A stretch of DNA of 32,000 nt from Promethearchaeota archaeon (GCA_048938295.1 JBHLMI010000002.1:107541-139540); one strand, 5' to 3'. Shown: positions 1 to 27,055, counted from the stretch's first letter. Notes: a model not told the origin generated them from the letters alone. Translations and numbers: made by a program.

Positions 1-255
1 TTGAAGAATTCCATCCCGTCCTTCGATTTCAATTGCACAGAGACCACAGCCCTCATACACTACATTCTCTCCAATGTTTTTAATTTCTTGACTCCCACGA
101 AAGACATTACCAGTGGTTTTGGTTCCCACTCCAGATGGCAAATCGGGATGGTAACACAAGCGAGGAATGTACACATCCACAGACTCAGCTGCAATTAGTA
201 AGTTCGAGCCCGCATCTACTTCAGCTTCTATACCATTTATTGTCAATTTTACCAT
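1..255 (-). CDS. bzdV: BzdV-like Fe-S/flavin NAD(P)H:ferredoxin oxidoreductase, N-terminal 2Fe-2S-type domain (runs off window; absent from ORF track)
   Basis: Manual translation from ATG at 255: MVKLTINGIEAEVDAGSNLLIAAESVDVYIPRLCYHPDLPSG...YEGCGLCAIEIEG, open to base 1. This is the NuoG/HoxU-like LCYHP...GCxLC motif with an insertion, lying directly downstream of bzdM as in Azoarcus bzd operons. Confidence 0.7.
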   Translation of the reverse strand, partial: MVKLTINGIEAEVDAGSNLLIAAESVDVYIPRLCYHPDLPSGVGTKTTGNVFRGSQEIKNIGENVVYEGCGLCAIEIEGRDGILQ

Positions 256-320
256 TGGCGTCCACCTTCTCAGAGGATCTTCAGAGCATAAAGTTGGAAT
301 AGGTGCCGATTGTATTGTGA

Positions 321-632
321 TTAGAGCATTTGTCCTTTTGCAGTACTAAGGAAATGAGTAATAGCATGTGTAGGGCACACTGATACGCAAGGGGGCTCAT
401 CGTCCCCACTTGTTGTCTTACATGGAGCACAACTGTACTTGAGTTTGTGTCGATGTTCCTCTCGGACACCCAAGATGTCACCATCATCAATATCGAAATC
501 ATTTGGAACAACTTCTAACACTGATGCAGGACAGACTTCAACACATTTTCCACACCCATCACATTTGTCTGTATCCAAAGTGATGAAATATTCCCCCGAT
601 CCATCCTTGTACCCGTAATTTGCAATCAACAT
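321..632 (-). CDS. bzdM: Benzoyl-CoA reductase-associated 2x[4Fe-4S] ferredoxin
   Basis: MLIANYGYKDGSGEYFITLDTDKCDGCGKCVEVCP...KLKYSCAPCK...PCVSVCP. ATG at 632 is preceded by AGGTGA; the gene follows bzdQ. Confidence 0.88.
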   Translation of the reverse strand: MLIANYGYKDGSGEYFITLDTDKCDGCGKCVEVCPASVLEVVPNDFDIDDGDILGVREEHRHKLKYSCAPCKTTSGDDEPPCVSVCPTHAITHFLSTAKGQML

Positions 633-647
633 TATCACCTGGATAAA

Positions 648-1547
648 TTAACCTTGAGAGCGTTCGTAGAGCACCTTAGCAAACAGCGCGGCTCCTGCAG
701 CCCCTGCCAGCATCGGATCAAATCGTGGGTCATCACGCCATTGGTCTGGTTTGAGGGCTTGAATTCCCAACTCCTTTTCAACACGTTTGACTATTCCAAT
801 GTTTTTAGCAATCCCACCTGTGATAACAAATTCTTTCTCGACGCCCACTCGATTTAACAAGTCAACGACACGATGGGCCATAGCCTGGCAATACGCGGCC
901 AAAACCTCTTCTTTTGACCAACCACTGCGAAGAAGGCCCACAGCTTCAGACTTAGCAAAAACTACACAGGTACTACTCACGGATTGGGGTTCCTCTTTTA
1001 CTGCGAAGGATCGGTCTCCGACTTCTTGGATTGGAACAGAAAGCAAATCGGCAAACACTTCCATGCCTCGACCAGTTCCCGCTGCACACTTATCATTCAT
1101 TAGGAAATTCTGGACCTTTCCTTTTTCATCAACGCGAATGGCTTTGCAATCCTGACCACCCATATCAAGAACCGTTCGAACAGAAGGCCCCCACATAAAA
1201 TTAGCCCCACGACCGTGACAGGCAATTTCAGTAATTGCCTTTTGTGCGAAGGGGATATTTACTCGCCCATACCCAGTTCCTACAACATAATTCATATCTT
1301 TGAGTGTCAGTCCTGTGTCCTCCAGAGCCCAGTTCATTGTCCGCTCAGCACTATCCGGACTGCTTGAGCCTGTTCGCATGACACTCTGTGCAAATACTTC
1401 TCCGTCAATCATGATTACAGTCTTTGAGCTGACTGAACCAATATCGACCCCTGCACTGATAACTTTTCCATTCTTGGGATCAATGCCTTCGACTGTGTGT
1501 CGGTATTCTGGCCATCTCCAGAATTCTTCTTTAGTCATTTTCATCAC
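648..1547 (-). CDS. bzdQ: Benzoyl-CoA reductase class I (bzd-type), ATP-binding activase subunit Q (BcrA-like)
   Basis: ASKHA motifs GVDIGSVSSK, GTGYGR, LDMGGQDCK, MNDKCAAGTGR, SSTCVVFAKSE; N-terminal EFWRWPE extension; 299 aa. Confidence 0.92.
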   Translation of the reverse strand: MMKMTKEEFWRWPEYRHTVEGIDPKNGKVISAGVDIGSVSSKTVIMIDGEVFAQSVMRTGSSSPDSAERTMNWALEDTGLTLKDMNYVVGTGYGRVNIPFAQKAITEIACHGRGANFMWGPSVRTVLDMGGQDCKAIRVDEKGKVQNFLMNDKCAAGTGRGMEVFADLLSVPIQEVGDRSFAVKEEPQSVSSTCVVFAKSEAVGLLRSGWSKEEVLAAYCQAMAHRVVDLLNRVGVEKEFVITGGIAKNIGIVKRVEKELGIQALKPDQWRDDPRFDPMLAGAAGAALFAKVLYERSQG

Positions 1548-2320
1548 TCCTTTGTTCTTTCCTGGGCTACCAGAGCAGCCCCATAAGCACTCACGTATTC
1601 AGGAAACTCAGGCACATGAACTTCTACTCCTAATCCCCGCTTCATTGAGTCCACAAAGCCCACATCATAAGCGAGTCCCCCAACCAAAAGGACGTCCTCA
1701 GTTATTCCCAACCTTCGAACCATTGAAATCACTCGTTCTGCAATCGCATCATGTATCGCACGAGCAATGTTTGCTTTTGGGGTCTGATTATGAATAAGTG
1801 AGACGACTTCAGATTCCGCAAAGACCGTACATTGTGCATTCATCGGAACGGCTTCTGTGGCTTTCAATGACATTTGACCTATCTCACTTAATTCAACTTC
1901 CAGTGCTCGGGACATGGCTTCAACAAATGCCCCTGCTCCCGCTGCACACCTTTCATTCACCACAAAGTCTTCCATACCCCCGGATTCATTACATTTGACA
2001 GCCCGTGCTTCCTCAGCCCCGACATCAATAATGGTCCGAGCTGACAATAACAACTTGACCCCTGCTTTGGCATTTGCCCCGACTTCGCTAATACTATCTG
2101 CTGCAAATTCTACTGACCCTTGGCCAATTCCGGTCTCTGTGATGTGGGCAATGTCTTCGAGCTTCAACCCTGCAGCCTTTAAAGCCATCTCTGAGGCTTC
2201 TTTAGCAGCAATATTGAGATCAAAGCCTGTTGATGCTTTTCCCTTTCCAACTATCTTTCCATCATCGAGGATGACGACTTTTACGTTCTTTGCCCCAAAG
2301 TCAATTCCGGCAGTAATCAT
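1544..2320 (-). CDS. bzdP: Benzoyl-CoA reductase class I, ATP-binding activase subunit P (BcrD-like)
   Basis: GIDFGAKNVK, IIDVGAEEARA, NERCAAGAGAF, NAQCTVFAESE; 4-nt overlap with bzdQ. Confidence 0.92.
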   Translation of the reverse strand: MITAGIDFGAKNVKVVILDDGKIVGKGKASTGFDLNIAAKEASEMALKAAGLKLEDIAHITETGIGQGSVEFAADSISEVGANAKAGVKLLLSARTIIDVGAEEARAVKCNESGGMEDFVVNERCAAGAGAFVEAMSRALEVELSEIGQMSLKATEAVPMNAQCTVFAESEVVSLIHNQTPKANIARAIHDAIAERVISMVRRLGITEDVLLVGGLAYDVGFVDSMKRGLGVEVHVPEFPEYVSAYGAALVAQERTKE

Positions 2321-2333
2321 TTTTGACTTCCTC

Positions 2334-3632
2334 TTATTTGACTCCTAATAATTCCAAGAAAGAATCCACGGCTTTCTTCGTGCGTTCCAAATCGAATTCT
2401 CTTTCATCACCCATATTTCCTTCAAAAGGAAGTACTGGGATGCCCGCTTCCTTGAAAGCGAGACGGTTCTCTGCGATGTTCAACGATAAACCTTCACATC
2501 CGCGATTATAATGCAACATAACGCCATCAACGTTCCATTCTCGAACAATGCGGAGCATCATGTCACTTTTCTTTTGAGCGGAATAGAAGTGCTGCCATTC
2601 AGGTCGAGAATGGGTCCAATCAGCTAAAATCTCGAGTGCCTGTTTTCGGGTAGTAATATCAATTCCTTGCTCTTGTGGTGTCGTTCTGGGACCCCAAGTG
2701 CCATCTTCTTTCACTTCCCATGCTCCAATCAAACTAAAAGTGTAAAGCGATCCAACGGACACTACACCATATGATTCGAGATATCGGAAAATTTTAAGAA
2801 AAGCCCATGGAGGTTGGGTGTCTGTAATAACCCGGCGTTGTTCATTACCCACTGCGGCGATTTTGTTATTGACGCGATCTTGGACTTCGTCCCGAAGTTT
2901 TCGATAGAAGGCTACAATCTCAGGTCGATGTTTCATGATAGTTCCAAATACATAGAGTGAATACATCGTCTTTTCATCGAGTGGTGCCGGGATTGTTTTA
3001 TTCAGAGCACAAATCTCTGCCCACAGGGAAGTGGCTTCACATTCGTTGTAAACCGCTTGGATTAGTTTTTGATCATCATAATCCCGGCCAGTGGTTTTTT
3101 CGAGCCAATCTATGCCATCTAGCAATTGATTCACAACGTATTCTCGACGGCGCTCATTGAAATCCTCAGTAAGTCCTGTGCTCACATCAATACAAAAGAA
3201 AGGCACGCCGCCTTCTAGGTCGCTAGCGATTTGATACCATTTTGCGTGACTACAGCAAATGTGAGTGGTCCACATGAAATCTGGTTTGGGAAATTTGCCA
3301 CCAAATACGTATTCGTCTAACACGACTGAACCAAGATAGTTTCGTAAATATGCACACAGATCTCGAGCAAATCCTTTTGCTTCAATAGCTTCATGGCATC
3401 GTGCTGCAAATTCTTTGTTGAATGCAACTGAAGCCCCATATGGTTCTCCAGTGAGACTCCACACATCGTCACCTAGACCAGCAGGAACCGCACTATAAGC
3501 CCAGGCTCCACCTGCCCATCGGATTCCACCTTTCTCATGAGCTTTTGCATAATTATCATAGTATTGTTGTCGTAACGCTTTCCCTTCATTCCAGATATCC
3601 AAAGGTTTAGTCTTGTATTTCATCTCAGTCAT
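2334..3632 (-). CDS. bzdO: Benzoyl-CoA reductase class I, subunit O (BcrB/HgdA-like)
   Basis: 2-hydroxyacyl-CoA dehydratase-family motifs [46 protein letters not shown]; 432 aa. Confidence 0.92.
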
Positions 3633-3641
3633 TTACTTCAC

Positions 3642-4766
3642 CTAAAACAGGTCGGGTAGTGCGAACGTTTCCAGAAACGCTTCAACACGAGTCTTAAACT
3701 GTCCAATTGGTACCGTTACATCAAATTCTAAGAAATAAGTTGGAATACCATTCTCTTCGAGCATTGAACGCAAAGCCGGCATATCTAATTCATGGGGATC
3801 ACAGAACTTCTGTTGAATAACAAGGGCGCCTTCAACGTTGTAGTCTTTAGCCAGTTGCAAAATGTGTGGGAATCGTTTTCGAATAGGCCAGTCTTTACTA
3901 GGACAAGGAGGTCGATCAATGTACCTGGCAGAGATAGCAGCCAACCGGTCTTCTTGAGGTTCAACCGCGTTCCAGAAATATCGAGTGCCCGTACAATGTT
4001 CATCAACCACGAGTGTAGAATCTAATGACTCAACCATTTCCACAAATTCTGTGTCGTCATCTTCACTTCCGATAATCATAAGACGAGTTCCAGTATTTCT
4101 GTCAAGTTTCCGAGTCGGTAATTCTTTTAGCACTTCTTCCAAAGCTTGATTGTGTTCTTCCTTATCGACCATTTGACTAGAAACAACCATGTACATTGCT
4201 TCGAGCCCAGTCAGAGGGGGATTTTCCTGTTTCCGAAACTCATAGACTTGTTTCATTAGTTGGCGATTCTTGTTCAAAACCTCGATACCTCGATCTATGT
4301 CATTATCCGAGATCGAGCGTCCAATCCATTTCTCCAAGGCTTTTTTGAAAACCTCCAGTTCTCCCCGTAAATATGGGTAAGCGTGTGGCGTTTGGACCCC
4401 ATGGGGCATGTACATGTAATAACTGAAGTCTAGGGGAATGTGCTTGACCCAGCTATTGAACGCTTGGCGGATATGCAGACACGATTGAGCAATCATGATA
4501 CCATTGACGTAATCGAATCGACCTTTCAAACCTTGAGCCAAGCAGTCACGGCAAAAGGGACAAAACATCCCAAAGATATGAGGTTCGGTTACATCCTGTG
4601 CCTCGTGACTGCCCAAGATGCGAACGGGAAGGATATCAGCAGCAAGAAGAAGTTCTTCGGGGACATAAGTACAGAAATAGCCGAGAACTTTTCCACCTGT
4701 TCGTTTTTTCCAAGCTTGTGCGTAGTCGTGTCGGTTAGTGTACCATTCTTTGAATTTTTCAAACAT
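3642..4766 (-). CDS. bzdN: Benzoyl-CoA reductase class I, subunit N (BcrC/HgdB-like)
   Basis: GYFCTYVPEE, MFCPFCRDCLAQG, DEHCTGTRYFWN, QQKFCDPHE. ATG at 4766 is preferred over the GTG at 4790. Confidence 0.92.
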   Translation of the reverse strand: MFEKFKEWYTNRHDYAQAWKKRTGGKVLGYFCTYVPEELLLAADILPVRILGSHEAQDVTEPHIFGMFCPFCRDCLAQGLKGRFDYVNGIMIAQSCLHIRQAFNSWVKHIPLDFSYYMYMPHGVQTPHAYPYLRGELEVFKKALEKWIGRSISDNDIDRGIEVLNKNRQLMKQVYEFRKQENPPLTGLEAMYMVVSSQMVDKEEHNQALEEVLKELPTRKLDRNTGTRLMIIGSEDDDTEFVEMVESLDSTLVVDEHCTGTRYFWNAVEPQEDRLAAISARYIDRPPCPSKDWPIRKRFPHILQLAKDYNVEGALVIQQKFCDPHELDMPALRSMLEENGIPTYFLEFDVTVPIGQFKTRVEAFLETFALPDLF

Positions 4767-4869
4767 CGGGATCTTCCTACCCTGAAACACACTTGGAGAA
4801 GGACGTGTTGTTCACGGCGTACCTGTGTGATACTCCTTAAGAATTTTTGCAAAAACTTTTTATAATGAT

Positions 4870-4885
4870 TGTTAATTATTCAACA
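4870..4885. promoter_or_regulatory. Candidate operator TGTT-N8-AACA in the divergent bzdN/regulator intergenic region
   Basis: TGTTAATTATTCAACA; the same arm/spacer pattern occurs at 15361-15376 upstream of oah. Confidence 0.3.
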
Positions 4886-4937
4886 TTAATAAAAAGAATT
4901 AGCATGAAGATGAACAAAACATCAAGGAGCTAATCAC

Positions 4938-5273
4938 TTGACCAATTGGTATACTCAAAAGACTCGAGACTTGCTTTCTGCAATCACTCACCCCTCACGC
5001 GTGGCGATTCTGGAATTCTTGTCTGACCGTGATTTTGGAACGAATAAATCATTTAGACAACATCTCAAAACTTTACAACCTAAGGCTGGTGGTGATTCAC
5101 CGGCAGTTGTTACCCATCATGTTGCTTTACTTGAAAAATCTGGTTTAGTTAAGCATTCAGTGGATGATGCTAGGGTTATAATTGCTACAGCGATGGGGCG
5201 TAGAATGATTCGATTGCTAAGACAAATGATATCAAATTCGGACTTAGAGCAGTCGTGGGATCGGTCCCTTTAG
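4938..5273 (+). CDS. ArsR-like winged-helix transcriptional regulator, divergent from bzdNOPQ
   Basis: LLSAITHPSRVAILEFL and AVVTHHVALLEKSGLVK helix pattern; TTG start with AAGGAG RBS at 4924-4929. Confidence 0.75.
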   Translation: MTNWYTQKTRDLLSAITHPSRVAILEFLSDRDFGTNKSFRQHLKTLQPKAGGDSPAVVTHHVALLEKSGLVKHSVDDARVIIATAMGRRMIRLLRQMISNSDLEQSWDRSL

Positions 5274-5914
5274 AGATTGAATCCTTGTTCGCGGAGCACT
5301 TGAGTTAGGTTCTTTCCTTGGTCTCGGGCTCGTTGTAGGAAAAATCGAAGGTAGCGATCGAAGAAAGGATTACTACCTTTTGCTGCGAGGGGTATTCCGA
5401 GGATCATGTCACCTTTTATTAGTCCTAATCGTTGGGCTGCCATTCCCACCGACCACATCATTCGGTTATCGATGAAGTGTTGGGCGGCTACAGTTATTGC
5501 AGATGAGAGGGCAATCCCTAAATCCAGGATTTTAAAGGCACAAAGAGCCGTGGTTTTCTTTTGGCCAACCGCCTTTTCATAATCAGCACAGGTTTCGAAT
5601 CCACAGGCTTTACAATCAAGGGTAAGGGGCGGGCGTTGGGCATGGATACCTATAAGGAAAATGGCAGCACTTTCTTTTACAGCTTCAGCATCAGGTTCTA
5701 AAAACCAAAAGGTTTGACCAGTGAGGTCTTCTTGGCGCATCCTTTCGATTTCTTTGGCGGTTTGGTGAATTGTGGGTCCAGATACGATTTCAATTGTTAG
5801 ATCATCGAAGCCTTTAGATTTGGGAGCAGTGGTTGCAGCTGCTGCCATTAGATTTGCTACAGATTTAACTGCCTCGTTAGTGAGCGTCTCTCTTTTTGTT
5901 GGTATTTGATTCAC
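5270..5914 (-). CDS. DUF2148-family ferredoxin-domain protein
   Basis: AAATTAPKSKG, DCKACGFETC, CAFKILDLGIALSSA, IDNRMMWSVG, NPFFDR motifs. Confidence 0.75.
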   Translation of the reverse strand: MNQIPTKRETLTNEAVKSVANLMAAAATTAPKSKGFDDLTIEIVSGPTIHQTAKEIERMRQEDLTGQTFWFLEPDAEAVKESAAIFLIGIHAQRPPLTLDCKACGFETCADYEKAVGQKKTTALCAFKILDLGIALSSAITVAAQHFIDNRMMWSVGMAAQRLGLIKGDMILGIPLAAKGSNPFFDRYLRFFLQRARDQGKNLTQVLREQGFNL

Positions 5915-5957
5915 TCTTCTGAAGATTATTTTAAATGGTCGATAGTCTTGTGCGTGT

Positions 5958-7247
5958 TCAGTTCTTTGGTGCTTTCCCAGTAATGGCTTTTACAATAGCC
6001 CAGAACTCCTCTTCTTTCAAACCAAGGCGGGTTTCTCGGAGGAGCTCAGCGGCTTTATGTAATTGGCGAAGCATTTCAACCTTATCTCTGAGTTTATGCG
6101 TCTCTTTCACCTGCGATACAATTTGCTGAATTTCTTCATCAGTGGCTTCGATGTTTTCTTGCTCCAGCTTAGTTTTTACAATATGACTCCCAGTATGTTT
6201 TCCCATGTAGAATTCAGTTTTCCGTCCAACCGTTTCAGCGGGAATTGGTTCATAGGTTAGCTGGTGAGAGAGGATGCCATGAACGTGGATACCTGCTTCG
6301 TGTGAAAAGGCGTTTTCACCAGTAATGGCTTTATGGACCGGAAGGAGGATGGCAAACGCTTCACTCACCAAATCAGCCAGTTCTTGGATTCTTTCGGTTT
6401 TGATGCCCGTTCGAACGTCATAAAGGAATTCGAGTGCCATGACTACTTCTTCGAATGGAGCGTTCCCAGCACGTTCACCAAAACCAGCGACACATACATG
6501 CGGAACAGTAACGCCTTCCTCTACTGCCGCCAAAGTGTTAGCAGTGGCTAGACCAAAGTCATTATGGTTATGAATGGAAAGCTGAACTTTACCTTTGACT
6601 TCTTGGTTAAGGCGGTCACGGACGTGAGAAACCATATATCGCATCGATTCTGGTCTTAAGAAACCTACAGTATCGGTGATTACACACCGATCTGCACCAG
6701 CTTCCAATGCAGTTTTGAAGATCTTCACCGTGTTATCAATGCTCGTGCGTGAAGTATCTTCGGAAACAAAATCAACAATAACTCCGTATTTCTTTGCATA
6801 TTCAACGCAATCGGTTACAATGCTTAGTGCTTCTTCCTGGGTTTTCTTTAGCTTGTATTTCAGGTGAAGATTACTGAATGCAATAAATATAGGTACTTCT
6901 TCGGCTCCTGCCTGGATGGCAACATCAATGTCAGATCTAATTGCACGAGCTGGCGCACATAATTTGGCTTGTTTGAAACCTTCGGCGGCTATTCGACGAA
7001 CAACCTCTTCTTCATCTTTAGAAACAGCAGGAAAACCCACGTTAATTATTGCAAATCCCATCTCATCCATGAGTTTTGCTATTTCGATCTTTTCATCAAT
7101 TAAAAGACTAGTGCCTGGTGTCTGTTCACCATCACGAAGGGTTTCATCCCAAATAAGAACTTCTTTGGGTAGATATTTTGGCTTTGTTGCAGGAACTTTG
7201 TTAAAGTTAACGATTAAGCCATCTGCCTCTAATTCGTCTAACAACAT
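5958..7247 (-). CDS. Homocitrate/isopropylmalate synthase family acyltransferase (AksA-like, no LeuA regulatory domain)
   Basis: DETLRDGEQTPG, HNHNDFGLA, GFGERAGNA, SHEAGIHVHG, YEP...GKHTG; 429 aa, too short for the C-terminal allosteric domain. Confidence 0.8.
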   Translation of the reverse strand: MLLDELEADGLIVNFNKVPATKPKYLPKEVLIWDETLRDGEQTPGTSLLIDEKIEIAKLMDEMGFAIINVGFPAVSKDEEEVVRRIAAEGFKQAKLCAPARAIRSDIDVAIQAGAEEVPIFIAFSNLHLKYKLKKTQEEALSIVTDCVEYAKKYGVIVDFVSEDTSRTSIDNTVKIFKTALEAGADRCVITDTVGFLRPESMRYMVSHVRDRLNQEVKGKVQLSIHNHNDFGLATANTLAAVEEGVTVPHVCVAGFGERAGNAPFEEVVMALEFLYDVRTGIKTERIQELADLVSEAFAILLPVHKAITGENAFSHEAGIHVHGILSHQLTYEPIPAETVGRKTEFYMGKHTGSHIVKTKLEQENIEATDEEIQQIVSQVKETHKLRDKVEMLRQLHKAAELLRETRLGLKEEEFWAIVKAITGKAPKN

Positions 7248-7352
7248 TTGCTTCTGCCATCCTGTTCAATCAATATGGATAGTATAGACTTAAGTTTCTT
7301 TCTTGTCTATAATGTAAAAACATTTGAACTCACATCAGGCAGGAGAAAATCC

Positions 7353-8129
7353 ATGGGTTCTGGATATACTAATGTAAGAGTTGACGTCTCAGATGGTGTA
7401 GGGCAGATTTTAGTGAATCGCCCACCCTTGAATATCCTTGATCAACAAACACTGACAGAACTTTATATGGCATTATTGGATATGAAGACAAATTCGGGAG
7501 TGAATATCGTTCTTCTTAGAACGGCAGGTGAGCGATTCTTTTCCGTTGGGGTGGATGTCGAACAGCATCTTCCTGAACATGCCCCAAAAACTTTAGAGGC
7601 ATTCAATAAAGTCTTTGAAGCCCTCATTGATGTTGATAAACCTGTCATTGCTGTTGTTCAAGGGTCAGCCTTAGGCGGCGGGTGTGAGCTGGCCTTTGCT
7701 TGTGATATTGTGATTGCCGTGGATTCAGCTAAGTTTGGTCAGCCAGAAATTCAAGTAGGTGCTGTGCCTACGGTTGCTGCCGCAGCCATGCATCATTTTA
7801 TTGGTCAAAAACGAACCTTCGAATTGCTTTATACTGGAGATAGCATTTCTGCTGAAAAAGCTGTACAGATTGGACTCATTAACCATGCTGTACCAGCTGA
7901 TCAGTTGGAGAAGATAGTCGATGAATTTATTACTAAACTTAAGGAGCATAGTCCAATTATGCTTCGGTATGTTCGGCGAGCCCTGTACAAAAGTAGGCAT
8001 CTCGACTTTTTGCAGGCTGTAGAAAAATCGACTGAAATTTACCTCGACTCGTTGAAAAATACCGAGGATGCGTCTGAGGGACTCAAGGCATTCTTAGAGA
8101 AGCGCAAACCAGAATGGAAAGGGAAATAG
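7353..8129 (+). CDS. dch: Cyclohexa-1,5-diene-1-carbonyl-CoA hydratase (crotonase family)
   Basis: FSVGVDVEQHLPE, ALGGGCELA, FGQPEIQVG; ATG at 7353 with AGGAGA RBS; benzoyl-CoA context. Confidence 0.78.
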   Translation: MGSGYTNVRVDVSDGVGQILVNRPPLNILDQQTLTELYMALLDMKTNSGVNIVLLRTAGERFFSVGVDVEQHLPEHAPKTLEAFNKVFEALIDVDKPVIAVVQGSALGGGCELAFACDIVIAVDSAKFGQPEIQVGAVPTVAAAAMHHFIGQKRTFELLYTGDSISAEKAVQIGLINHAVPADQLEKIVDEFITKLKEHSPIMLRYVRRALYKSRHLDFLQAVEKSTEIYLDSLKNTEDASEGLKAFLEKRKPEWKGK

Positions 8130-8144
8130 AGGTACAAGTGAAGA

Positions 8145-9176
8145 TTAGGGAATAACGATATTCCGACCAAGAACCTTGCCTTCTTCGAGGAGCTTGAAGG
8201 CTTCATTAATTTCTTCAAGTGGACGTTTGCTATCGATTATCGGTTTGATTTGAATGACCCCTTGTTCTACCATCCTCAAGAGGGGAGGATAATCGACTGC
8301 ACGACAGCCCAGCGATCCCCGTATTTCGATTTCTCGGTACATGACTCGCGATGCTGAGACAGTCCAATCGGATTCGGCATAGCCTACAACAACCATCCGT
8401 CCGCCCCATTTTACTACGGCTAATGCTTGACTCATGACATCAGGAATGCCAATGGCCTCAAAGGAGATATCTACACCTCGCTTTTGGGTTAAGTCTCGAA
8501 TCTGTTTGACGGGGTTCTCATCCTTGGAGTTTATCATCACAGTAGCTCCGAGTTTTTCAGCGAGTTTCAACTTCTTGTCATCAATATCGACGGCATATAC
8601 AATGCCACCTGTGGCAGCAGCGATTTGCACCACATTGATACCCACCCCCCCACAACCAAAAACAGCGACCAAATCACCTGGGCGAACTTCGCCACGATTC
8701 TTTACAGCATGGTAGGGTGTAGATATTGCATCAGCAACGATACTTGTTTCTTCTAGAGGTAATGAGTCGGGAATTCGAAAGATCTCCTTCGCTGGGACAC
8801 GAATGTATTCAGCATATGCGCCATCAATGTTGTTTCCCACCATTTCTTGGCGTTGGCAGACGTTTCCACGCCCTAATCGACAATTATCACAAAATCCACA
8901 GCTAAGAACGGCAGGAATTAATACGCGATCTCCTTTAGCCCAATTATCCACAGCAGATCCAAGTTCGGCAATAGTTCCTGATGCTTCATGGCCAAGTACC
9001 ATGGGAGGTTTTTTGAAAGTGGGGGTACCATGCAAATAGTGAAGGTCAGTTCTGCATACTCCACAGGCTGCCACTTTAATCAACACATCACCCGGTCCGA
9101 GTTCAGGTGTAGGTATGTCTTCGATTTGAAGCGGTTTTCCGGCGCCATAGAATACTGCAGCTTTCACTGAGAACAC
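8145..9176 (-). CDS. had: 6-hydroxycyclohex-1-ene-1-carbonyl-CoA dehydrogenase (Zn-dependent MDR family)
   Basis: CGVCRTDLHY, LGHEASG, CGFCDNCRLGRGNVC, ADAISTPYHA, FGCGGVG, GSLGCRAVDYP. The start may be the GTG at 9167. Confidence 0.8.
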   Translation of the reverse strand: MFSVKAAVFYGAGKPLQIEDIPTPELGPGDVLIKVAACGVCRTDLHYLHGTPTFKKPPMVLGHEASGTIAELGSAVDNWAKGDRVLIPAVLSCGFCDNCRLGRGNVCQRQEMVGNNIDGAYAEYIRVPAKEIFRIPDSLPLEETSIVADAISTPYHAVKNRGEVRPGDLVAVFGCGGVGINVVQIAAATGGIVYAVDIDDKKLKLAEKLGATVMINSKDENPVKQIRDLTQKRGVDISFEAIGIPDVMSQALAVVKWGGRMVVVGYAESDWTVSASRVMYREIEIRGSLGCRAVDYPPLLRMVEQGVIQIKPIIDSKRPLEEINEAFKLLEEGKVLGRNIVIP

Positions 9177-9407
9177 CTGGGCAAGTATCTGACTTAGAAC
9201 CTTATATTCTTTAGCAAGATTACATTCAATAAAAAAGTGCTTTCTCTTAGCTCAAAAGAATTAATAGATTGATTACGTGTAGTATGAAAAAAAACATCGA
9301 AGTTCAGACAAAGAACTGAAACACCTGAGGGTGCCAAGGTTGGGATCCAAAGTTAAGATAATTAAAAGTGTATGTCGTAGTTGCTATGGTGGTTGGGGAG
9401 AGAACCA

Positions 9408-9704
9408 ATGGAAAGCGCAGATTTGGGTGTCAAAATCCGTTTGATAGGTGTGTTGAAGATTACAACAGGAATCGAAGATGTAAAGCTGGATTTAGAGGAT
9501 AATGACACAATTGATTCTATTCTCAATAGGCTAGTAGAAAGGTACCCTGCTCTTCGTCAAGAATTGTACACTGAGACTGGTGAGATTCATAAGTATCTCA
9601 ACATTTTTGTTGACAACAAACCTGTTCTTCAGCAAAATCTTAATGATATCCCGATTCAGAAGCCAACGACATTAACACTGGTTATGGCAGTTGGTGGTGG
9701 ATGA
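9408..9704 (+). CDS. moaD: MoaD/ThiS ubiquitin-like sulfur carrier
   Basis: Beta-grasp pattern (LNIFVDNK) with C-terminal AVGGG; lies immediately upstream of the AOR gene. Confidence 0.8.
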   Translation: MESADLGVKIRLIGVLKITTGIEDVKLDLEDNDTIDSILNRLVERYPALRQELYTETGEIHKYLNIFVDNKPVLQQNLNDIPIQKPTTLTLVMAVGGG

Positions 9705-9727
9705 CAAACCCTCTGGAATGATCTGAA

Positions 9728-11560
9728 ATGACAACAAACCAATATGCGCTTGTCAATCTAAGTAAAGATTCAGTGAAAATCACAGAAATACCAGCAAATG
9801 TCATAAGAAGCTATTTAGGCGGTCGAGGAACGAACGTCTATCATCTTAACAAGTTGCTCAGGAAGAATGTAGATCCCCTTTCTCCAGAAAACGTGCTGAT
9901 ATTTGGTGCTGGTTTACTTACGGGGTACCTCATCCCAAATGCGTCGCGATTCAATGTGACAGCGAAATCCCCCGAATCCGGCTTTTTAGGTGACACTAAC
10001 TGTGGAGGTTATTTTGGTCCTGAGATGCGTTATGCTGGTTTTAATCAGATTATCATACTGGGCAAAGCGAAGAATCCAAGTTACATTTACCTTCAAGATG
10101 GTTCCGTTGAAATTCGAGACGCTTCGGATTATTGGGGTCTTGATACATATGACGTTCAAACCGAGTTACGGAAAGATCTAGGTGATGTACAGGCTGCTGT
10201 CACAGGAGAAGCTGGTGAAAAACTCGTCCGGTTTGCTAACATTCGAAACGGTGTGAAAAACTCTGGAGGGCGGGGTGGTCTTGGTGCGGTAATGGGATCG
10301 AAGAACTTGAAAGCCTTAGTCGCCTATGGAACTCAAGGTCTTGATGTTGCTCATCGTGAACAGCTTCTGGAGGTCACCAAAAGTATCAACGATTATGTCC
10401 TAAACTCTAAGGTCATCTCAGTCATGGGTAAACTAGGTTCTCCATATCTGTATGATGTTAGTAATGCGCTGGGGGCCATTCGCACAAAGAACAGTCAGCT
10501 GAATGCCTGGTCCGATTCACTAAACGCGGAATATTTCGAAGAGTATGCTGAGAAAATGGTTTCTTGCGCCTCTTGCATTGTCCATTGCCGGCACAGGAAT
10601 ACCATGGATGGAGAAGGCCCTGAATATACAACGATTGGATTACTGGGAGCAAACATTGGCTTAACTGATCCAAAACAGGTTATCGAGTTGAATAACCTCT
10701 GTAACCGCCTAGGGTTAGATACAGCATCTGCAGGGACCATACTTGCATGGACCTTTGAACTCTATGAAAAAGGAATTGTTGACAAATCAAAGTTCCTCGG
10801 GGAGAAACTTGAATTCGAGAATTTCGAACTTGCTAAATCTCTATTAGAAAAAATTGCCCGACGTGAGGGGCTTGGAGATGTTCTAGCGGAAAGCACTCAA
10901 GCTGTACACCATTTTGGACCAAAATCAGCAGATTATCTTATTGCTGTAAAGAATTTACCGCAAAGTGATCCCCACGATGTTCGATACATCAAGGCGTTCG
11001 CACTAGGTATAGCAACCGCTTCGAGAGGAGCGGATCACCTCCGGAGTCGACCTACCCTTGAAATCTTTCTCCGCTTACCGCAAGAAGTAAAAGAAAGCAT
11101 CTATGGCCCGGGTATCTCACCTGACCCTACGTCATATGAGGGAAAGGAGAAAGCCGTTTTTTGGTCTGATAACATGTACGCAGTAATTGATGCGGTAGGA
11201 ATCTGCAAATTCATCTGCCATGGTTTCAACAGCCCGCATCTCATTGGATATGAACAGGTAAAGGAATTTCTACACGCTGCAGTTGACCTCAAATTCGACG
11301 AACAAGAATTGCAGGAGGTTGGAAAACGAATTATTGACACGGAACGAATCCTCAATCTTCGATTTGGACTCACTCGGGCAGATGATTCATTACCCAAACG
11401 TTACTTTGATGACCCCGCTCCCCTGAAGACTGCAGAAGGTCATCATGTTGATCGTAAGCAGTTTCAAATCATGTTGAATCGATATTATGCCCTTCGCGGA
11501 TGGAACGATGAGGGATCAGTACCTGAAGAACGTGTTAATGAATTGGAGGCGATTGAATGA
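9728..11560 (+). CDS. aor: Tungsten-dependent aldehyde:ferredoxin oxidoreductase family protein (atypical active site)
   Basis: YLGGRG, AKSPESG, GRGGLGAVMGSKNLKA, SCASCIVHC, GLDT, RGADH, DAVGICKF, YYALRGW; EGPEYTT instead of EGPEYE. Confidence 0.88.
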   Translation: MTTNQYALVNLSKDSVKITEIPANVIRSYLGGRGTNVYHLNKLLRKNVDPLSPENVLIFGAGLLTGYLIPNASRFNVTAKSPESGFLGDTNCGGYFGPEMRYAGFNQIIILGKAKNPSYIYLQDGSVEIRDASDYWGLDTYDVQTELRKDLGDVQAAVTGEAGEKLVRFANIRNGVKNSGGRGGLGAVMGSKNLKALVAYGTQGLDVAHREQLLEVTKSINDYVLNSKVISVMGKLGSPYLYDVSNALGAIRTKNSQLNAWSDSLNAEYFEEYAEKMVSCASCIVHCRHRNTMDGEGPEYTTIGLLGANIGLTDPKQVIELNNLCNRLGLDTASAGTILAWTFELYEKGIVDKSKFLGEKLEFENFELAKSLLEKIARREGLGDVLAESTQAVHHFGPKSADYLIAVKNLPQSDPHDVRYIKAFALGIATASRGADHLRSRPTLEIFLRLPQEVKESIYGPGISPDPTSYEGKEKAVFWSDNMYAVIDAVGICKFICHGFNSPHLIGYEQVKEFLHAAVDLKFDEQELQEVGKRIIDTERILNLRFGLTRADDSLPKRYFDDPAPLKTAEGHHVDRKQFQIMLNRYYALRGWNDEGSVPEERVNELEAIE

Positions 11561-12012
11561 GATACATTTTCGTTTATCCTGAACGGTGCACGGGTTGCCG
11601 ATTATGTTCACTTGCTTGTTCATTAACCAAATTTGGGGAATGCAACCCAAGAAAGGCAGCAATTAGTGTTGTTCGAGATGAGTTTGAACGGTTTGAGTTT
11701 CCAGTGGTATGTTTTCAATGCCAGGACGCGCCTTGTATCGCCGCATGCCCACAAAACGCTATCACAGAGGTGGAAGGAATAACATCACGCGACGAGAACC
11801 GCTGCATTGGTTGTCGACTGTGTGCAGTTGTGTGCCCATTCTCTGCGATAACAACCCACGGTAAGGACCTAATTCGTTGTGATCTTTGTGGCGGTGATCC
11901 ACAGTGCGTAAAATATTGTTCCACAAAGGCCATTGTATATGAGGAAGAAACACAGGAAGCAATGCAACGACGAAAGGTGCAATTAGCCCGGGTTCTAATT
12001 CCGGAGAAATAA
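11557..12012 (+). CDS. Multi-[4Fe-4S] electron-transfer subunit (DmsB/AorA-like)
   Basis: CTGCRLCSLAC, CFQCQDAPCIAACP, CIGCRLCAVVCP, CDLCGGDPQCVKYC; 4-nt overlap with aor. Confidence 0.9.
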   Translation: MRYIFVYPERCTGCRLCSLACSLTKFGECNPRKAAISVVRDEFERFEFPVVCFQCQDAPCIAACPQNAITEVEGITSRDENRCIGCRLCAVVCPFSAITTHGKDLIRCDLCGGDPQCVKYCSTKAIVYEEETQEAMQRRKVQLARVLIPEK

Positions 12013-12031
12013 TTTCTGAGTGTCGTTTTAG

Positions 12032-13267
12032 TTAAGTTTGTTTTTCTCGAGATTGCCAATAACGTTGACCAATGAGTGTATCTTTTTTCAGAGAATCAAG
12101 GACATCTGAAATGTTGGCTCCAGTTCGATGAGCTTGCAGGATAAACCCTGAATTTCGAAGATCTCCAATTGCTTGGTAACCTAAAACCTTGCCATCGCAA
12201 ATTATGAGTTTCCGGAAAGCTTTGTTTCGGTGTATCCTGATAATGTCACATTTACCTATTTCAGTTGAAGGCTGGCCAATGCTAAGCACTGGTATCTCAA
12301 AGATGTTAATCAAATTGATGGCATCAGATCCCTGATATGAAACCTTTAGACCAAGCATATTTTGTGCTGCGGTTCGTCCTTGATAAATGGCATTTGGCCA
12401 TATTGCATTAATCCTTAATTTATTCGTAGCGCGTTCTATGGCTTCTGCGACATCGCCCGCCGCGTATACGTTTGCAACGTTGGTTTGCATATATTCGTTT
12501 ACAAGAATTCCTTGATTTGTTTTAATTCGGGTTCCTTGGATAATGTCAATATTTGGACGAACACCCACAGCTACGACGACAAGGTCACATTGTAGTTGTT
12601 TCTTACCAATTTGTACCCCTTTGACGGCTTTTTCACCAAGAACTTTGCTAACACTTGTTGAAGTATGAACTTCTATGCCTTGTTCTTGTAAAAGCTGGCG
12701 CACGATTTCGGCCGTATCTTCATCTAACATTCGAGGTAGAAGATGATTTTCTCTTTCAATGATTGTCACTTGGGCACCAAGGCGATGGAGAGCAGTGGCA
12801 CTTTCGATGCCGACAAATCCCCCACCAATTACAACTACATGTTTTATCTTCTGTTTCGCTCTTGCTAGGATGCTTTTGCTATCTCGCAAATTCATTAGAG
12901 TGACGACACCATCTTTATCAAGCCCTTCTATTCGAGGTTTGATTGCAGATGCACCAGTGGCGATGAGAAGCTGATCATAGGTGAGTTCGTCCCCCGTTTC
13001 AAGGAAAACGGAGTTGGACTGCGGATTTACCGCTGTGACAGTTGTGGCTAGTTTCATTTCAATTCCCTCGTCTTCAAAATACTGGGGATCAAACCGATCG
13101 AGATATTGTTCATCAATTTCTCCAGCAACAAAAGAGGGAAGAGAGAACAACGCGTAGAATCGTGTATCCTTTGTGATTAACACGACATCAAAGGTATGTT
13201 TATGTTCAATTAGTGTTTGTACTGCACTCAGCCCAGCTGCTCCGCTTCCGATTATCACAAGGCGCAT
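12032..13267 (-). CDS. FAD-dependent NAD(P)H oxidoreductase (NirB/rubredoxin-reductase/AorC-like)
   Basis: IIGSGAAG, LLIATGAS, VIGGGFVGIE, TNVANVYAAGDVAE, WPNAIYQG. Confidence 0.85.
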   Translation of the reverse strand: MRLVIIGSGAAGLSAVQTLIEHKHTFDVVLITKDTRFYALFSLPSFVAGEIDEQYLDRFDPQYFEDEGIEMKLATTVTAVNPQSNSVFLETGDELTYDQLLIATGASAIKPRIEGLDKDGVVTLMNLRDSKSILARAKQKIKHVVVIGGGFVGIESATALHRLGAQVTIIERENHLLPRMLDEDTAEIVRQLLQEQGIEVHTSTSVSKVLGEKAVKGVQIGKKQLQCDLVVVAVGVRPNIDIIQGTRIKTNQGILVNEYMQTNVANVYAAGDVAEAIERATNKLRINAIWPNAIYQGRTAAQNMLGLKVSYQGSDAINLINIFEIPVLSIGQPSTEIGKCDIIRIHRNKAFRKLIICDGKVLGYQAIGDLRNSGFILQAHRTGANISDVLDSLKKDTLIGQRYWQSREKQT

Positions 13268-13391
13268 GTGAATCCACTCAACCCCAAAAATAGTCCCTTT
13301 CGCCTAAAAATACGCTTGGTAGCAGCACACAATTTTGGCGAATAACAGGTTTTTTATTAACATCCTGCATAGCCTCTTCGAGGTGACGCTT

Positions 13392-14255
13392 TTGGAAATC
13401 AAAAAAGTCGCAGTCGTTGGCGCTGGACTCATGGGTCACGGTGTGACACAAGTTCTGGCTCAGATTGCTGGTTATGAGGTATATCTGAAAGACATCAAGC
13501 AAGAATTCATTGACACGGGTATGGGTCGTATCAAATGGAGTCTTGACAAACTTGTTGAGAAAGAGAAACTCGCTCAAGCTGATGCGGATGCAACACTTAA
13601 CCGTATTCACCCTACCCTTGAAATGAAGGAAGCGATGAGTGACACAGATTTCATCATTGAGGCAGTGCCCGAAAATTTAGATCTTAAGAAGAAGATCTTT
13701 GCTGAAATGGATGAACTAGCACCTTCACATGCAATACTCGCATCGAACACTTCATCAATCAGTATTAGCCAGATAGCCGCAGCCACTAAACGTCCCGATA
13801 AGGTAGTGGGTATGCACTTCTTTAATCCTGTGCAAATCATGAAGCTTGTTGAAATTATCCGGGGAGAAAATACGTCAGATAACACCATTTCAGTGGTTGA
13901 GCAAGTATCACAGAAAATGGGTAAGGAAACCGTGCTTTGTAAGAAAGATTCACCTGGTTTCATTGTCAACCGTATCCTAGTTCCTGCGCTTAATGAAGCC
14001 ATCTGGTTACTCCAAGAGGATGTTGCGGAACCTGAGGATATTGATAAGGCAATTAAATTGGGATTAAACTGGCCAATGGGACCAATCACACTCTTGGATT
14101 ATGTAGGATTAGACACTACTCTTTCCATCACTAAAGTATTTCAAAAAGAGATGGATGAACACAAATACGCTGCAGCTCCACTACTTGGAAAGATGGTTAA
14201 AGAAGGCAAGTTAGGTAGAAAGACAAAGCAAGGATTTTATGATTGGAACAAGTAA
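13392..14255 (+). CDS. hbd: 3-hydroxyacyl-CoA dehydrogenase
   Basis: VGAGLMGHG, IEAVPENLDLK, ASNTSSI, GMHFFNP, PGFIVNR, PMGP; TTG start at 13392 after GAGGTG. Confidence 0.9.
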   Translation: MEIKKVAVVGAGLMGHGVTQVLAQIAGYEVYLKDIKQEFIDTGMGRIKWSLDKLVEKEKLAQADADATLNRIHPTLEMKEAMSDTDFIIEAVPENLDLKKKIFAEMDELAPSHAILASNTSSISISQIAAATKRPDKVVGMHFFNPVQIMKLVEIIRGENTSDNTISVVEQVSQKMGKETVLCKKDSPGFIVNRILVPALNEAIWLLQEDVAEPEDIDKAIKLGLNWPMGPITLLDYVGLDTTLSITKVFQKEMDEHKYAAAPLLGKMVKEGKLGRKTKQGFYDWNK

Positions 14256-14339
14256 ATCACAAATCGATTTTGAACCTGCCACTGGCTCAAAAGCTCGCAT
14301 TAAGGCGGAATTCCGAGCTAAGTGAGAATACATCCCGAT

Positions 14340-15275
14340 TTACTTGTCTAACTTTGCGCCACATTTTCCGCAGTGAGTGAACTCGCTGGGGAGGTAGGTT
14401 GTGCCACAGCTTGGGCAGGTTTTTTCCCATGGCCCCCATTTGAATTCAGGTGATTTACCATCTGCGGCTTCTTGTCGCAATCGCATATATGCTGGAGGTC
14501 GTTTTTCAACGAAGGCCCACATTCCTTCATGAGGTTCTTGAGAACTGAAGTGGACACTAAGCCAATCTCGTACACTTGGCCAAGTTAAGGACCAAACAAG
14601 GTCTTTCCAGAAGTTCACTTGGGCTTTAGTAAAGCGTAGACATTCGGGGAATTTTTCTAGGATTTTCTTTGACCATTCTGCAATTGTTTCATCGAGTTTA
14701 TCATAGGGAACAACTTCGTTAACGAGTCCCCAATCCTTGGCTTTTTCAGCACTGATTCGATCGCATGTGAAGAGCATTTCTCGGGCTCGCCGGTCACCAA
14801 TGATGATTGGCAACCACTGGGTAGCACCTCCCGCGGCAACACTCCCAACACGTGTTCCTACTTGTAAAATTTCAACGTGGTCTGCAGCGATTGCTAGGTC
14901 GCATGCCATTTGGACTTCATTTCCGCCACCAGCAACGATACCGTTTAATCGAGCTATCACTGGTTTTCCACAATGTCGTAGCAGATGTAGGGCACGTTCA
15001 AAAATTTCGCACCATTTCCAAAAGTCTCGGGGTTTTTTGGTGTATTTGGTCGCATATTCTTTAACGTCGCCTCCAGTACAGAAAGCTTTCTTGCCGGCAC
15101 CAGTAACAACGATGACTCCGACTTCATCATCCCAAGAGGCTGTATGAAGGGCATCAGACATTTCGTTGAGAGTCAGAAGGGTATAAGCATTGTATTTTTC
15201 TTCTCGGTTAATTGTGATGGTAGCGACCCAGTCTTTTTTCTCATAAAGAATTTCTTTGTATTTGGGTTTAGCCAT
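14340..15275 (-). CDS. oah: 6-oxocyclohex-1-ene-1-carbonyl-CoA hydrolase (ring-opening; BzdY/BamA-like)
   Basis: AFCTGGDVKEYA, AGGGNE, QVGTRVGSVAAGGATQWLP, VNFWKD, C-terminal CPSC...CGKCG; ATG at 15275. Confidence 0.85.
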   Translation of the reverse strand: MAKPKYKEILYEKKDWVATITINREEKYNAYTLLTLNEMSDALHTASWDDEVGVIVVTGAGKKAFCTGGDVKEYATKYTKKPRDFWKWCEIFERALHLLRHCGKPVIARLNGIVAGGGNEVQMACDLAIAADHVEILQVGTRVGSVAAGGATQWLPIIIGDRRAREMLFTCDRISAEKAKDWGLVNEVVPYDKLDETIAEWSKKILEKFPECLRFTKAQVNFWKDLVWSLTWPSVRDWLSVHFSSQEPHEGMWAFVEKRPPAYMRLRQEAADGKSPEFKWGPWEKTCPSCGTTYLPSEFTHCGKCGAKLDK

Positions 15276-21824: not shown

Positions 21825-21830
21825 TGTCTC

Positions 21831-24261: not shown

Positions 24262-24283
24262 CCACGAAATGGAAGTGAAAGAA

Positions 24284-27031: not shown

Positions 27032-27055
27032 ATTCCTCGCTTCCTTCACATTGGT

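Follow-up and report, generated by a model that had tools for sequence, protein, structure and literature searches.

How does an Asgard archaeon that encodes a benzoyl-CoA reductase (BCR), and in which the canonical ring-opening hydrolase Oah is not found, open the dearomatized ring? The question is raised by a 32,000-nt stretch (hereafter the window; positions 107541-139540 of contig C8) of the Promethearchaeota archaeon genome GCA_048938295.1, here G000, which contains bzdNOPQ, candidates for the hydratase Dch and the dehydrogenase Had, and an Oah-related crotonase with a C-terminal zinc ribbon that we call OahZ. The genome comprises 2.52 Mb in 66 contigs and is 91.6% complete and 4.3% contaminated. 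Genes in the window were taken from an open reading frame (ORF) listing and from NCBIfam and Pfam scans, solved relatives from matches in the PDB, and the cut-offs of curated equivalog models served as family tests. From these comparisons the window is probably a native benzoyl-CoA degradation locus of a Hermodarchaeota (Asgard) genome, with OahZ as the likely enzyme of ring opening.

The cluster is already known as a genomic prediction for this genus. Zhang et al. (2021; ISME J 15:1826, PMC8163825) reported Hermodarchaeota genomes containing Bcr, Dch, Had and Oah, found BzdV, ferredoxin, Dch, Had and an NADP-dependent oxidoreductase on the bcr contig of h02s_80, and inferred conversion of benzoyl-CoA into 3-hydroxypimeloyl-CoA followed by beta-oxidation. 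Their Supplementary Table 9 lists iorB, iorA, BzdQ, BzdO, BzdN, dch and had as genes 16, 17, 21, 23, 24, 28 and 29 of contig h02s_80_k137_3686449 (the cluster also appears in Fig. 5). The window belongs to the same genus-level lineage and shares with that cluster its gene order and pathway inference; the family membership of Dch, Had and Oah was not part of that paper. A first-pass annotation of this DNA had stated that the capability was reported earlier for Hermodarchaeota, and indeed the very cluster proves to be published. The genes on which the argument turns are as follows.

1-255, minus strand: BzdV-like Fe-S flavoprotein, first 85 codons of 836 aa; Fer2_4 (Pfam) in the part inside the window
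321-638, minus strand: BzdM-like ferredoxin, 105 aa (ferredoxin family matches, Cys motifs)
648-1547, minus strand: BzdQ, ATPase subunit of the reductase (TIGR03192)
1544-2320, minus strand: BzdP, second ATPase subunit (TIGR00241 and operon position)
2334-3632, minus strand: BzdO, catalytic-module subunit (TIGR03191; PDB 8s02_A)
3642-4790, minus strand: BzdN, catalytic-module subunit (TIGR03190; PDB 8s02_B)
7353-8129, plus strand: Dch-like enoyl-CoA hydratase (ECH), below the TIGR03189 cut-off; likely start Met 7353, in an ORF that opens at 7248
8145-9176, minus strand: Had-like zinc-dependent alcohol dehydrogenase (Zn-ADH) of a variant subfamily; TIGR03201 is the top family match, below cut-off
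14340-15275, minus strand: OahZ, crotonase related to Oah and ending in a zinc ribbon, candidate for the ring-opening hydrolase; its ORF is open from 15377

Family models and solved structures identify the reductase as a true bzd-type class I BCR and not a dehydratase. The genes bzdN-O-P-Q are spaced by a 4-nt overlap or by gaps of 10-14 nt. BzdN (517.3 bits, cut-off 453.8), BzdO (622 bits, cut-off 448.6) and BzdQ (406.7 bits, cut-off 380.2; best PDB match MbdQ, 209 bits) all pass their equivalog models. BzdP passes only the generic activase-domain model (192.6 bits, cut-off 125.4) and matched no BzdP-specific model; it is assigned from operon position and from counterparts of 46-63% identity in other bzd loci. 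The families of BCRs and 2-hydroxyacyl-CoA dehydratases are homologous, and models for HadB/HadC, the double-cubane reductase and the activator all match here, which could be taken to mean that BzdNOPQ is a dehydratase and its activator, or some other enzyme of the double-cubane or ketyl-radical kind. We consider this extremely improbable. The 2-hydroxyisocaproyl-CoA dehydratase models reach 133-175 bits on the reductase proteins of the window against cut-offs of 700-750, and the PDB matches to BCR chains are 3-6 times stronger than those to dehydratases: BzdO scores 594 bits with solved BzdO and 98 bits with HadB of 2-hydroxyisocaproyl-CoA dehydratase (3o3m), and BzdN 499.5 bits with solved BzdN and 159 bits with HadC of the same structure. 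In the printed alignment BzdN and BzdO are both about 60% identical to the solved 8s02 chains. Two distinct ATPase subunits, as in BCRs, and a dedicated ferredoxin after the ATPase genes point the same way. Since BzdN and BzdO match the BzdN/O models and structures and not the dehydratases, the identification as a BCR stands; a grouping with 2-hydroxyacyl-CoA dehydratases, which the first-pass annotation had wished to see checked, was not observed, and its bzdNOPQ and BzdM-like ferredoxin are all present.

The ferredoxin is of the 2x[4Fe-4S] type, with the motifs CxxCxxCxxxC and CxxCx10CxxxCP, and has homologs of 43-63% identity beside bzdQ in most loci from outside Hermodarchaeota. The gene next to it crosses the left edge of the window (whole gene C8:105285-107795). 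Its 836-aa product combines a 2Fe-2S/NuoG-HoxU-like N-terminus with a GltD/NfnB-like NAD(P)H-binding flavoprotein body; beyond the window it contains Fer4_20, Pyr_redox_2 and NADH-G_4Fe-4S_3 and matches NCBIfam PRK12771 at 463 bits, and homologs of its N-terminus adjoin bzdM in most of 80 bzd loci. In descriptions of the bzd cluster, BzdV figures as a putative NADPH:ferredoxin oxidoreductase (PMC5658619). By domains and position the flavoprotein is putatively BzdV-like. The earlier mention of a bzdV-like gene therefore holds for this left-edge gene and fails for the one probably meant, 12032-13267, which encodes the FAD subunit of an aldehyde:ferredoxin oxidoreductase (AOR). As read from its sequence, the six-gene minus-strand operon (bzdN-O-P-Q, ferredoxin and the BzdV-like gene) encodes an Azoarcus-type class I (ATP-dependent) BCR together with its electron donor and, putatively, an NAD(P)H:ferredoxin oxidoreductase.

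We propose that OahZ is probably the ring-opening hydrolase of this locus, on the basis of its gene neighbourhood, its distribution, which excludes canonical Oah, and the motifs that it shares with Oah. OahZ has about 311 aa if translation starts at Met 15275, a start chosen because its homologs have 310-330 aa; canonical Oah has 360-380 aa. Both have the crotonase fold and both lie beside Had/Dch and BCR genes, but only OahZ ends in a four-cysteine zinc ribbon (CxxC-x13-CxxC), which reads WGPWEKTCPSCG-x13-CGKCG. This tail occurs in every close family member examined and is absent from canonical Oah, BadI-like and MenB-like sequences. OahZ is 29-31% identical to canonical Oah over the full length and up to 42% over shorter partial alignments. 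It shares with five canonical Oah proteins the motif TGG(D/N)xKEYAxxY...P, and with canonical Oah also an R(D/H)WL motif and a C-terminal xLRxxxAxG extension, none of which is found in MenB/BadI-like sequences; a Glu three residues past the oxyanion glycine, at the hydratase position (GG(N/Q)E), is common to OahZ and canonical Oah only.

The best-scoring characterized families are MenB and BadI, and the best match among solved structures is 2iex (180 bits). Aligned with E. coli MenB (4els), OahZ keeps the oxyanion glycines, and its Ser148 aligns with MenB S161. The MenB residues D163 and Y258 are, however, replaced by Ala150 and Phe246, whereas BadI-like sequences retain both, and OahZ reads GSVAAGG where BadI-like sequences read GSFDGG. 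Because the catalytic Asp and Tyr are replaced, OahZ would not be a MenB or BadI by mechanism. The Atlas cluster of OahZ has about 3000 members and is named only "enoyl-CoA hydratase/isomerase family", and the NCBI names of close homologs are equally generic. A full-text literature search returned nothing relevant on a zinc-ribbon Oah, which is not proof that none has been published.

A six-frame search of G000 found no canonical Oah; the best match was the oahZ gene itself, at 148 bits. Five other archaeal bzd genomes (Hermodarchaeota, Promethearchaeota, Methanomassiliicoccales, Methanobacteriota and Bathyarchaeia) have OahZ and lack canonical Oah, with OahZ adjoining bzd genes in four of the five. 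Canonical Oah was recovered at 554-595 bits in four bacterial bzd genomes and one from Heimdallarchaeota. In a sample of 301 Asgard genomes OahZ (E<=1e-100 or fragments) was present in 45, of which 32 are BzdO-positive. Among 44 further BzdO-positive Asgard genomes, 11 encode canonical Oah (plus one with a truncated copy), 30 have OahZ only and none has both; the remaining two gave no Oah or OahZ match at that threshold, one of them, G334, carrying OahZ fragments. The split between Oah and OahZ follows families. On balance, we think it somewhat probable that OahZ replaces canonical Oah/BamA in Hermodarchaeota, in most other sampled BCR-bearing Asgard archaea (30 of 44), in Bathyarchaeia, in Thermoplasmatota and in many uncultured bacteria.

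Gene neighbourhoods are consistent with this role. In the window 5-7 kb separate OahZ from the genes for the Had-like and Dch-like proteins, and the OahZ ortholog directly adjoins such genes in genome G002 and in the metagenomic loci L116, L118, L133 and L134. Of seven family members sampled in unrelated metagenomes, five have paired HGD-D genes within 8-9 kb, and four of these five have paired BcrAD genes too, mostly in an operon that includes a Zn-ADH and a crotonase; in one further case the contig stops after a short-chain dehydrogenase/reductase (SDR) and a crotonase. Seven-gene operons (OahZ, Zn-ADH, ECH, two HGD-D and two BcrAD) occur at L116:9001-16034 and L118:9001-16088. The reductase subunits of L116 and L118 are just 26-27% identical to BzdN/O and represent a different class I reductase lineage, so the hydrolase would travel with more than one such lineage. 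A small GNAT acetyltransferase gene (146-176 aa) stands directly beside OahZ and BCR-type genes in five unrelated metagenomic loci (L116:8209-8691, L118:8257-8730, L131:1701-2141, L133:15539-16069 and L134:7528-8004); the window has none.

Several findings weigh against OahZ as the ring opener. It reaches 172.5 bits on the Oah model TIGR03200, whose cut-off is 464.45, and scores slightly higher on the models for BadI (TIGR03210, 197.9 bits, cut-off 467.6) and MenB (TIGR01929/PRK07396, 190-207 bits, cut-offs 343 and 380), which it misses by about 150-270 bits. It lacks the Asp seen at GSAPDGG in most canonical Oah. In a 32-row crotonase tree it forms its own group outside the Oah and the MenB/BadI-like clades, with no clear sister. 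The tree is anchored by BadI-like and MenB-like rows only, because a search of 121 genomes from the order of the bacterial bzd genome G008 gave no BadI above cut-off, and 12 bzd genomes gave no canonical MenB above cut-off; the grouping of a Bathyarchaeia copy with Oah joined two long branches and was not relied on. Thirteen OahZ-positive Asgard genomes have no BzdO match, and one of the seven sampled OahZ genes lies among thiolase and 3-hydroxyacyl-CoA dehydrogenase (HBD)-ECH genes only. The co-occurrence counts, given here with no statistic, overstate independence, since genomes within a family are related.

The scores of the BadI and MenB models (198 and 207 bits, against 172 for Oah), the 13 genomes with no BzdO match and the member with thiolase and HBD-ECH genes would equally suit the main rival explanation, namely that OahZ is a BadI-type 2-ketocyclohexanecarboxyl-CoA hydrolase, in a route from cyclohex-1-ene-1-carboxyl-CoA to pimeloyl-CoA, or cleaves some other cyclic or beta-keto CoA ester, and that no textbook Dch-Had-Oah route operates. 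An SDR and an ECH follow OahZ in two family members, which resembles a BadH/BadK pattern. We nevertheless consider this explanation unlikely: the replaced Asp and Tyr are those that BadI-like sequences keep, the hydratase-type Glu and the other shared motifs are found in Oah only, OahZ and canonical Oah are mutually exclusive among BzdO-positive Asgard genomes, and the OahZ neighbour here and in most operons is a Had-type Zn-ADH and not an SDR.

The assignments of the hydratase and the dehydrogenase that would precede OahZ meet similar objections. The Dch-like protein reaches 143.3 bits on TIGR03189 (cut-off 292.5) and falls below the generic ECH models too, and the Had-like protein 265.7 bits on TIGR03201 (cut-off 338.65). 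No canonical Dch or Had was found in G000, 91.6% complete as it is, and these two proteins are the best candidates genome-wide. The Dch-like gene adjoins the Had-like gene, and its product keeps both crotonase catalytic Glu residues (GGGCE, GQPE), a generic crotonase feature that is not specific to Dch. TIGR03189 appears to be narrow, because the ECHs directly beside canonical Had and Oah in the bacterial genomes G008 and G009 miss its cut-off as well (227-231 bits). The Had-like protein shares 36-37% identity with Had proteins that pass the cut-off and 49-56% with Zn-ADHs encoded next to BCR genes in KSB1, Methanomassiliicoccales, Promethearchaeota, Heimdallarchaeota and two metagenomic operons, and by these identities it would belong to a variant Zn-ADH group. 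The first-pass annotation had named Dch, Had and Oah outright and had called the conversion to 3-hydroxypimeloyl-CoA complete by established biochemistry; neither statement can be upheld, as all three proteins, OahZ above all, fall outside the characterized families by the curated models.

The published Oah assignment may refer to a protein other than OahZ. In h02s_80 the gene published as 'oah' is number 9 and lies beyond iorAB, and by the same numbering OahZ would be at about gene 35. The corresponding 20 kb of G000, where a counterpart of gene 9 would lie, contains no crotonase.

The genes between the Had-like gene and OahZ, and those to the right of OahZ up to the end of the catabolic block, are as follows.

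9381-9704, plus strand: MoaD/SAMP-like small protein upstream of the AOR gene (SAMP1 47.6 and MoaD 33.9 bits, both below cut-off)
9728-11560, plus strand: tungsten-type AOR family enzyme (AFOR_N 239 and AFOR_C 337 bits)
11557-12012, plus strand: poly-[4Fe-4S] subunit (PadI-N-terminal and HydN-like matches), with a 4-nt overlap with the AOR gene (translationally coupled)
12032-13267, minus strand: FAD/NAD(P)H oxidoreductase, AorC/PadH-like (PadH 251.5 bits, below cut-off; PDB 8c0z_E)
13335-14255, plus strand: HBD (3HCDH_N 226 and 3HCDH 124.5 bits; PRK05808 377 bits, cut-off 408)
15433-15843 and 15845-17014, minus strand: DUF35 zinc-ribbon/OB partner (zf-ChsH2 and OB_ChsH2_C) and thiolase (PRK06064 484 bits, cut-off 420)
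17106-19055, minus strand: AMP-forming acyl-CoA synthetase, acetate-CoA-ligase-like (PRK00174 657.7 bits, cut-off 657)
19173-20333 and 20341-20763, plus strand: second thiolase and its DUF35 partner (NCBIfam/Pfam)
20769-21824 and 21831-22595, minus strand: F420-type luciferase-like (LLM) oxidoreductase and ECH, end of the catabolic block

We propose the following pathway. Reduced ferredoxin would give two electrons to BzdNO as BzdPQ hydrolyse ATP, yielding cyclohexa-1,5-diene-1-carbonyl-CoA. The Dch-like hydratase would add water, the variant Zn-ADH would oxidize the 6-hydroxy group, and OahZ would hydrate the product and open the ring hydrolytically to 3-hydroxypimeloyl-CoA. HBD, the two thiolase/DUF35 pairs and the ECH at 21831-22595, which bear out the earlier mention of beta-oxidation genes in the cluster, would then shorten the chain, with electron-transfer flavoprotein (ETF) and acyl-CoA dehydrogenases encoded elsewhere in the genome. 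Aromatic amino acids or aldehydes would supply both aryl-CoA and reduced ferredoxin, as the AOR/FeS/FAD unit within the block and the iorAB, peptidase and aminotransferase genes on the left flank suggest. The second thiolase/DUF35 pair has homologs of 52-61% identity beside bzd genes in several bacterial and archaeal loci.

The AOR is not part of the BCR. It matches P. furiosus AOR (1aor) at 385 bits, AorB (8c0z_A) at 240 and BamB (4z3w) at 219, and was accordingly rejected as a BamB-type class II reductase; it reads EGPEYTT at residues 295-301 and RGADH at 432-436. The protein at 12032-13267 matches the FAD subunit of the AOR complex of Aromatoleum (A. aromaticum; 8c0z_E, 164 bits), and its gene is co-located with the AOR, Fe-S subunit and MoaD-like genes in Hermodarchaeota loci. 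It was rejected as BzdV, being by its PadH/8c0z_E likeness the FAD partner of the AOR and not located beside bzdM or bzdQ.

The 20 kb to the left of the operon (C8:87541-107540) encode clostripain-like, M3 and M32 peptidases, class I/II and class IV aminotransferases, an Lrp/AsnC regulator, a DUF362 protein, iorAB, an amidohydrolase and an Arf-like small GTPase. Together with the AOR inside the block, this setting suggests that aryl-CoA and reduced ferredoxin derive from aromatic amino acids or aldehydes.

Two gaps bear on whether the route is complete at its two ends. No canonical benzoate-CoA ligase was found in G000 (best match 262 bits, cut-off 375); the acyl-CoA synthetase at 17106-19055 reaches 189 bits on the same model and 638.5 bits on the AcsA equivalog (cut-off 725). 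No specific glutaryl-CoA dehydrogenase was identified, one acyl-CoA dehydrogenase having been scanned: it lies 17 kb to the right of the window, past scaffold gaps, and is generic (268 bits on the glutaryl-CoA dehydrogenase model, cut-off 470). ETF alpha and beta are encoded on contig C3, and at least six acyl-CoA dehydrogenases elsewhere in G000. Within the window we likewise found no ETF, glutaryl-CoA dehydrogenase or canonical benzoate-CoA ligase, as had been stated before.

These two gaps and the amino-acid catabolic setting (three peptidases, aminotransferases, Lrp/AsnC, iorAB and AOR) would fit a reductase whose main use is as an electron sink or whose substrate is another aryl-CoA, such as a substituted benzoyl-CoA or an amino-acid-derived benzoyl-CoA reduced towards cyclohexane carboxylate, with no complete oxidative benzoate pathway. 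We regard this as improbable, since BzdN and BzdO are so close to the solved benzoyl-CoA enzyme and the chains of 3-methylbenzoyl-CoA reductase match BzdO and BzdN weakly (38 and 108 bits), and since the co-located hydratase, dehydrogenase, hydrolase candidate, HBD and thiolases fit ring opening followed by beta-oxidation.

A benzoyl-CoA degradation locus native to the archaeon also presupposes that the contig is sound. To the right of the catabolic block there is a gap of 300 nt, then unrelated genes, then the following marker.

28877-29482, minus strand: two-domain gelsolin (2DGel), Pfam Gelsolin 95.5 bits, two repeats

The best PDB match of this protein is the Asgard 2DGel3 (7c2g; 210.5 bits over residues 1-198), and orthologs of 84-96% identity occur in five Hermodarchaeota metagenome-assembled genomes (MAGs). 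By this likeness it is identified as an Asgard two-domain gelsolin, a signature protein, and it lies about 13.6 kb from position 15275, as the first-pass annotation had it. A class I/II aminotransferase gene follows at 29623-30831. The Arf-like small GTPase gene, about 20 kb to the left, is on the same gap-free sequence (7869-8717 of C8:87541-107540).

The locus is native to the archaeon and not a binning artefact, and its linkage to Asgard marker genes is real. The window holds no N; the first scaffold gap of contig C8 (100 N) opens one base past its end (32000/32001). Two further scaffold gaps lie within 12 kb to the right, where the sequence is joined by scaffolding only. Read-level data across 22.6-22.9 kb, where a break had been suspected, show continuity: a 6931-nt Logan contig of run X1 spans 21709-28639, and the stretch is present in four sediment runs of one study with even depth on both sides of the junction in all four. 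Logan provides a second assembler, and since X1 may be the source sample, not a second sample. The catabolic block is typical of the genome in GC and tetranucleotide composition (29th-85th percentile of 10-kb chunks for the latter). In three other MAGs from other assemblies (G001, G012 and G014) a single contig carries both bzdO and the gelsolin ortholog, at a distance of 25-28 kb; G011 and G013 have the two on separate contigs. From iorAB to had, the published h02s_80 contig has the same order of genes throughout.

In run X2 one contig connects 22588 with 28725 and so leaves out 6136 nt, with weak support (21 letters on one side), and loose contig ends lie at 22568 and 28612-28777. The skipped segment, 22589-28724, holds three hypothetical genes, a MarR-like gene, an N6/N4 DNA methylase, a PfkB kinase and a tandem Usp. 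The X2 junction may represent a strain variant lacking this segment, and with 21 letters on one side it was not accepted as evidence of chimerism.

A chimeric or mis-binned contig, with the catabolic block from a bacterium or another archaeon, is very improbable. The weak X2 joint and the loose ends near 22.6 and 28.6-28.8 kb could be cited for it, as could the patchy occurrence of bzd genes across phyla, the nearest BzdO from outside Hermodarchaeota being 70-75% identical, which implies lateral transfer at some time. The gap-free window, the bridging X1 contig with even depth, the genome-typical composition, the linkage in three other MAGs and the agreement with h02s_80 all argue against it.

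The position of BzdO agrees with the native origin of the locus. The closest BzdO proteins, at 93-95% identity, are those of Hermodarchaeota MAGs that share the gene order, among them Ca. Hermodarchaeum yapensis and H03M_Hermod_104, followed by Bathyarchaeia (73-75%) and Anaerolineae (70-71%). In an 83-row BzdO tree the window falls inside a fully supported 12-row Hermodarchaeota clade, and Bathyarchaeia and two Anaerolineae join it in the next starred set; other Asgard sequences (Heimdall-, Hod- and one Promethearchaeota-labelled) group apart from it, in a supported clade of their own that lies among bacteria. The tree is rooted on a very long outgroup branch, and the rooting was not used for the direction of transfer. 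Of 301 genomes sampled from the phylum, 45 have BzdO above cut-off, and the enzyme is therefore not rare in Asgard archaea; the positives include 10 of 19 genomes of the family of the window (G000 included) and members of families f9, f21, f13 and f17. Two MAGs titled 'Odinarchaeota archaeon H3S.115' and 'Promethearchaeota archaeon H2M.135' (loci L006 and L008) have BzdO of 94-95% identity, the Hermodarchaeota gene order and a place in the Hermodarchaeota BzdO clade, and their titles probably reflect naming and not a different lineage. The segment from MoaD to DUF35 is missing between had and the LLM gene in H2M.135.

Three genes separate bzdN from dch.

4938-5273, plus strand: small winged-helix protein, divergent from bzdN (NF033788, ArsR/SmtB-like, 23 bits, below cut-off; no Pfam match)
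5270-5914, minus strand: DUF2148 ferredoxin-domain protein (Pfam DUF2148 91.8 bits)
5958-7247, minus strand: HMGL-like/homocitrate-isopropylmalate-synthase-like protein, 429 aa (HMGL-like 263 bits and HCS_D2)

The last of these reaches 448 bits on the isopropylmalate synthase (IPMS) subfamily model (cut-off 517) and has no LeuA regulatory domain. The three genes occur at the same position at 74-92% identity in Hermodarchaeota loci, and in the other 72 loci they have no full-length match near bzdO except for one weak IPMS-like match of 29%. The winged-helix gene is kept in place, at 74-87% identity, in Hermodarchaeota loci only.

Among characterized systems, the bzd pathway of Azoarcus/Aromatoleum (BzdNOPQ, BzdM, BzdV, BzdW, BzdX and BzdY; PMC5658619) has the same four-subunit ATP-dependent reductase, ferredoxin and oxidoreductase, followed by hydratase, dehydrogenase and hydrolase. 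Unlike there, the hydrolase of the window is not BzdY/Oah by TIGR03200, Had and Dch are diverged, and an archaeon is the host. Neither a bzdA-type benzoate-CoA ligase nor BzdR was seen in the window, and its genes are interleaved with the AOR, HMGL-like and DUF2148 genes. Ferroglobus placidus, a hyperthermophilic Fe(III) reducer of the Archaeoglobi and not an Asgard archaeon, also degrades aromatic amino acids. This archaeon is reported to have an ATP-dependent bzd-type BCR with Dch, Had and Oah downstream.

A reductase that passes strict family tests, together with the linkage checks, corroborates the published cluster and is not a discovery; the gelsolin linkage and the read-level check are new here and likewise corroborating. 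The setting of peptidases, aminotransferases, iorAB and AOR points to aromatic amino acids, and not hydrocarbons, as the source of the substrate. The new point is a negative one: the "complete" pathway depends on a hydrolase other than the characterized enzyme, and this non-canonical hydrolase, OahZ, is the sole open and testable novelty of the locus. If OahZ is the ring opener, surveys based on bamA/oah markers and annotation pipelines would miss such organisms and undercount anaerobic degraders of aromatic compounds. In that case the zinc ribbon would be the mark of an enzyme form that differs in mechanism or structure, and a well-studied pathway would have an uncharacterized enzyme variant that is easy to express and assay.

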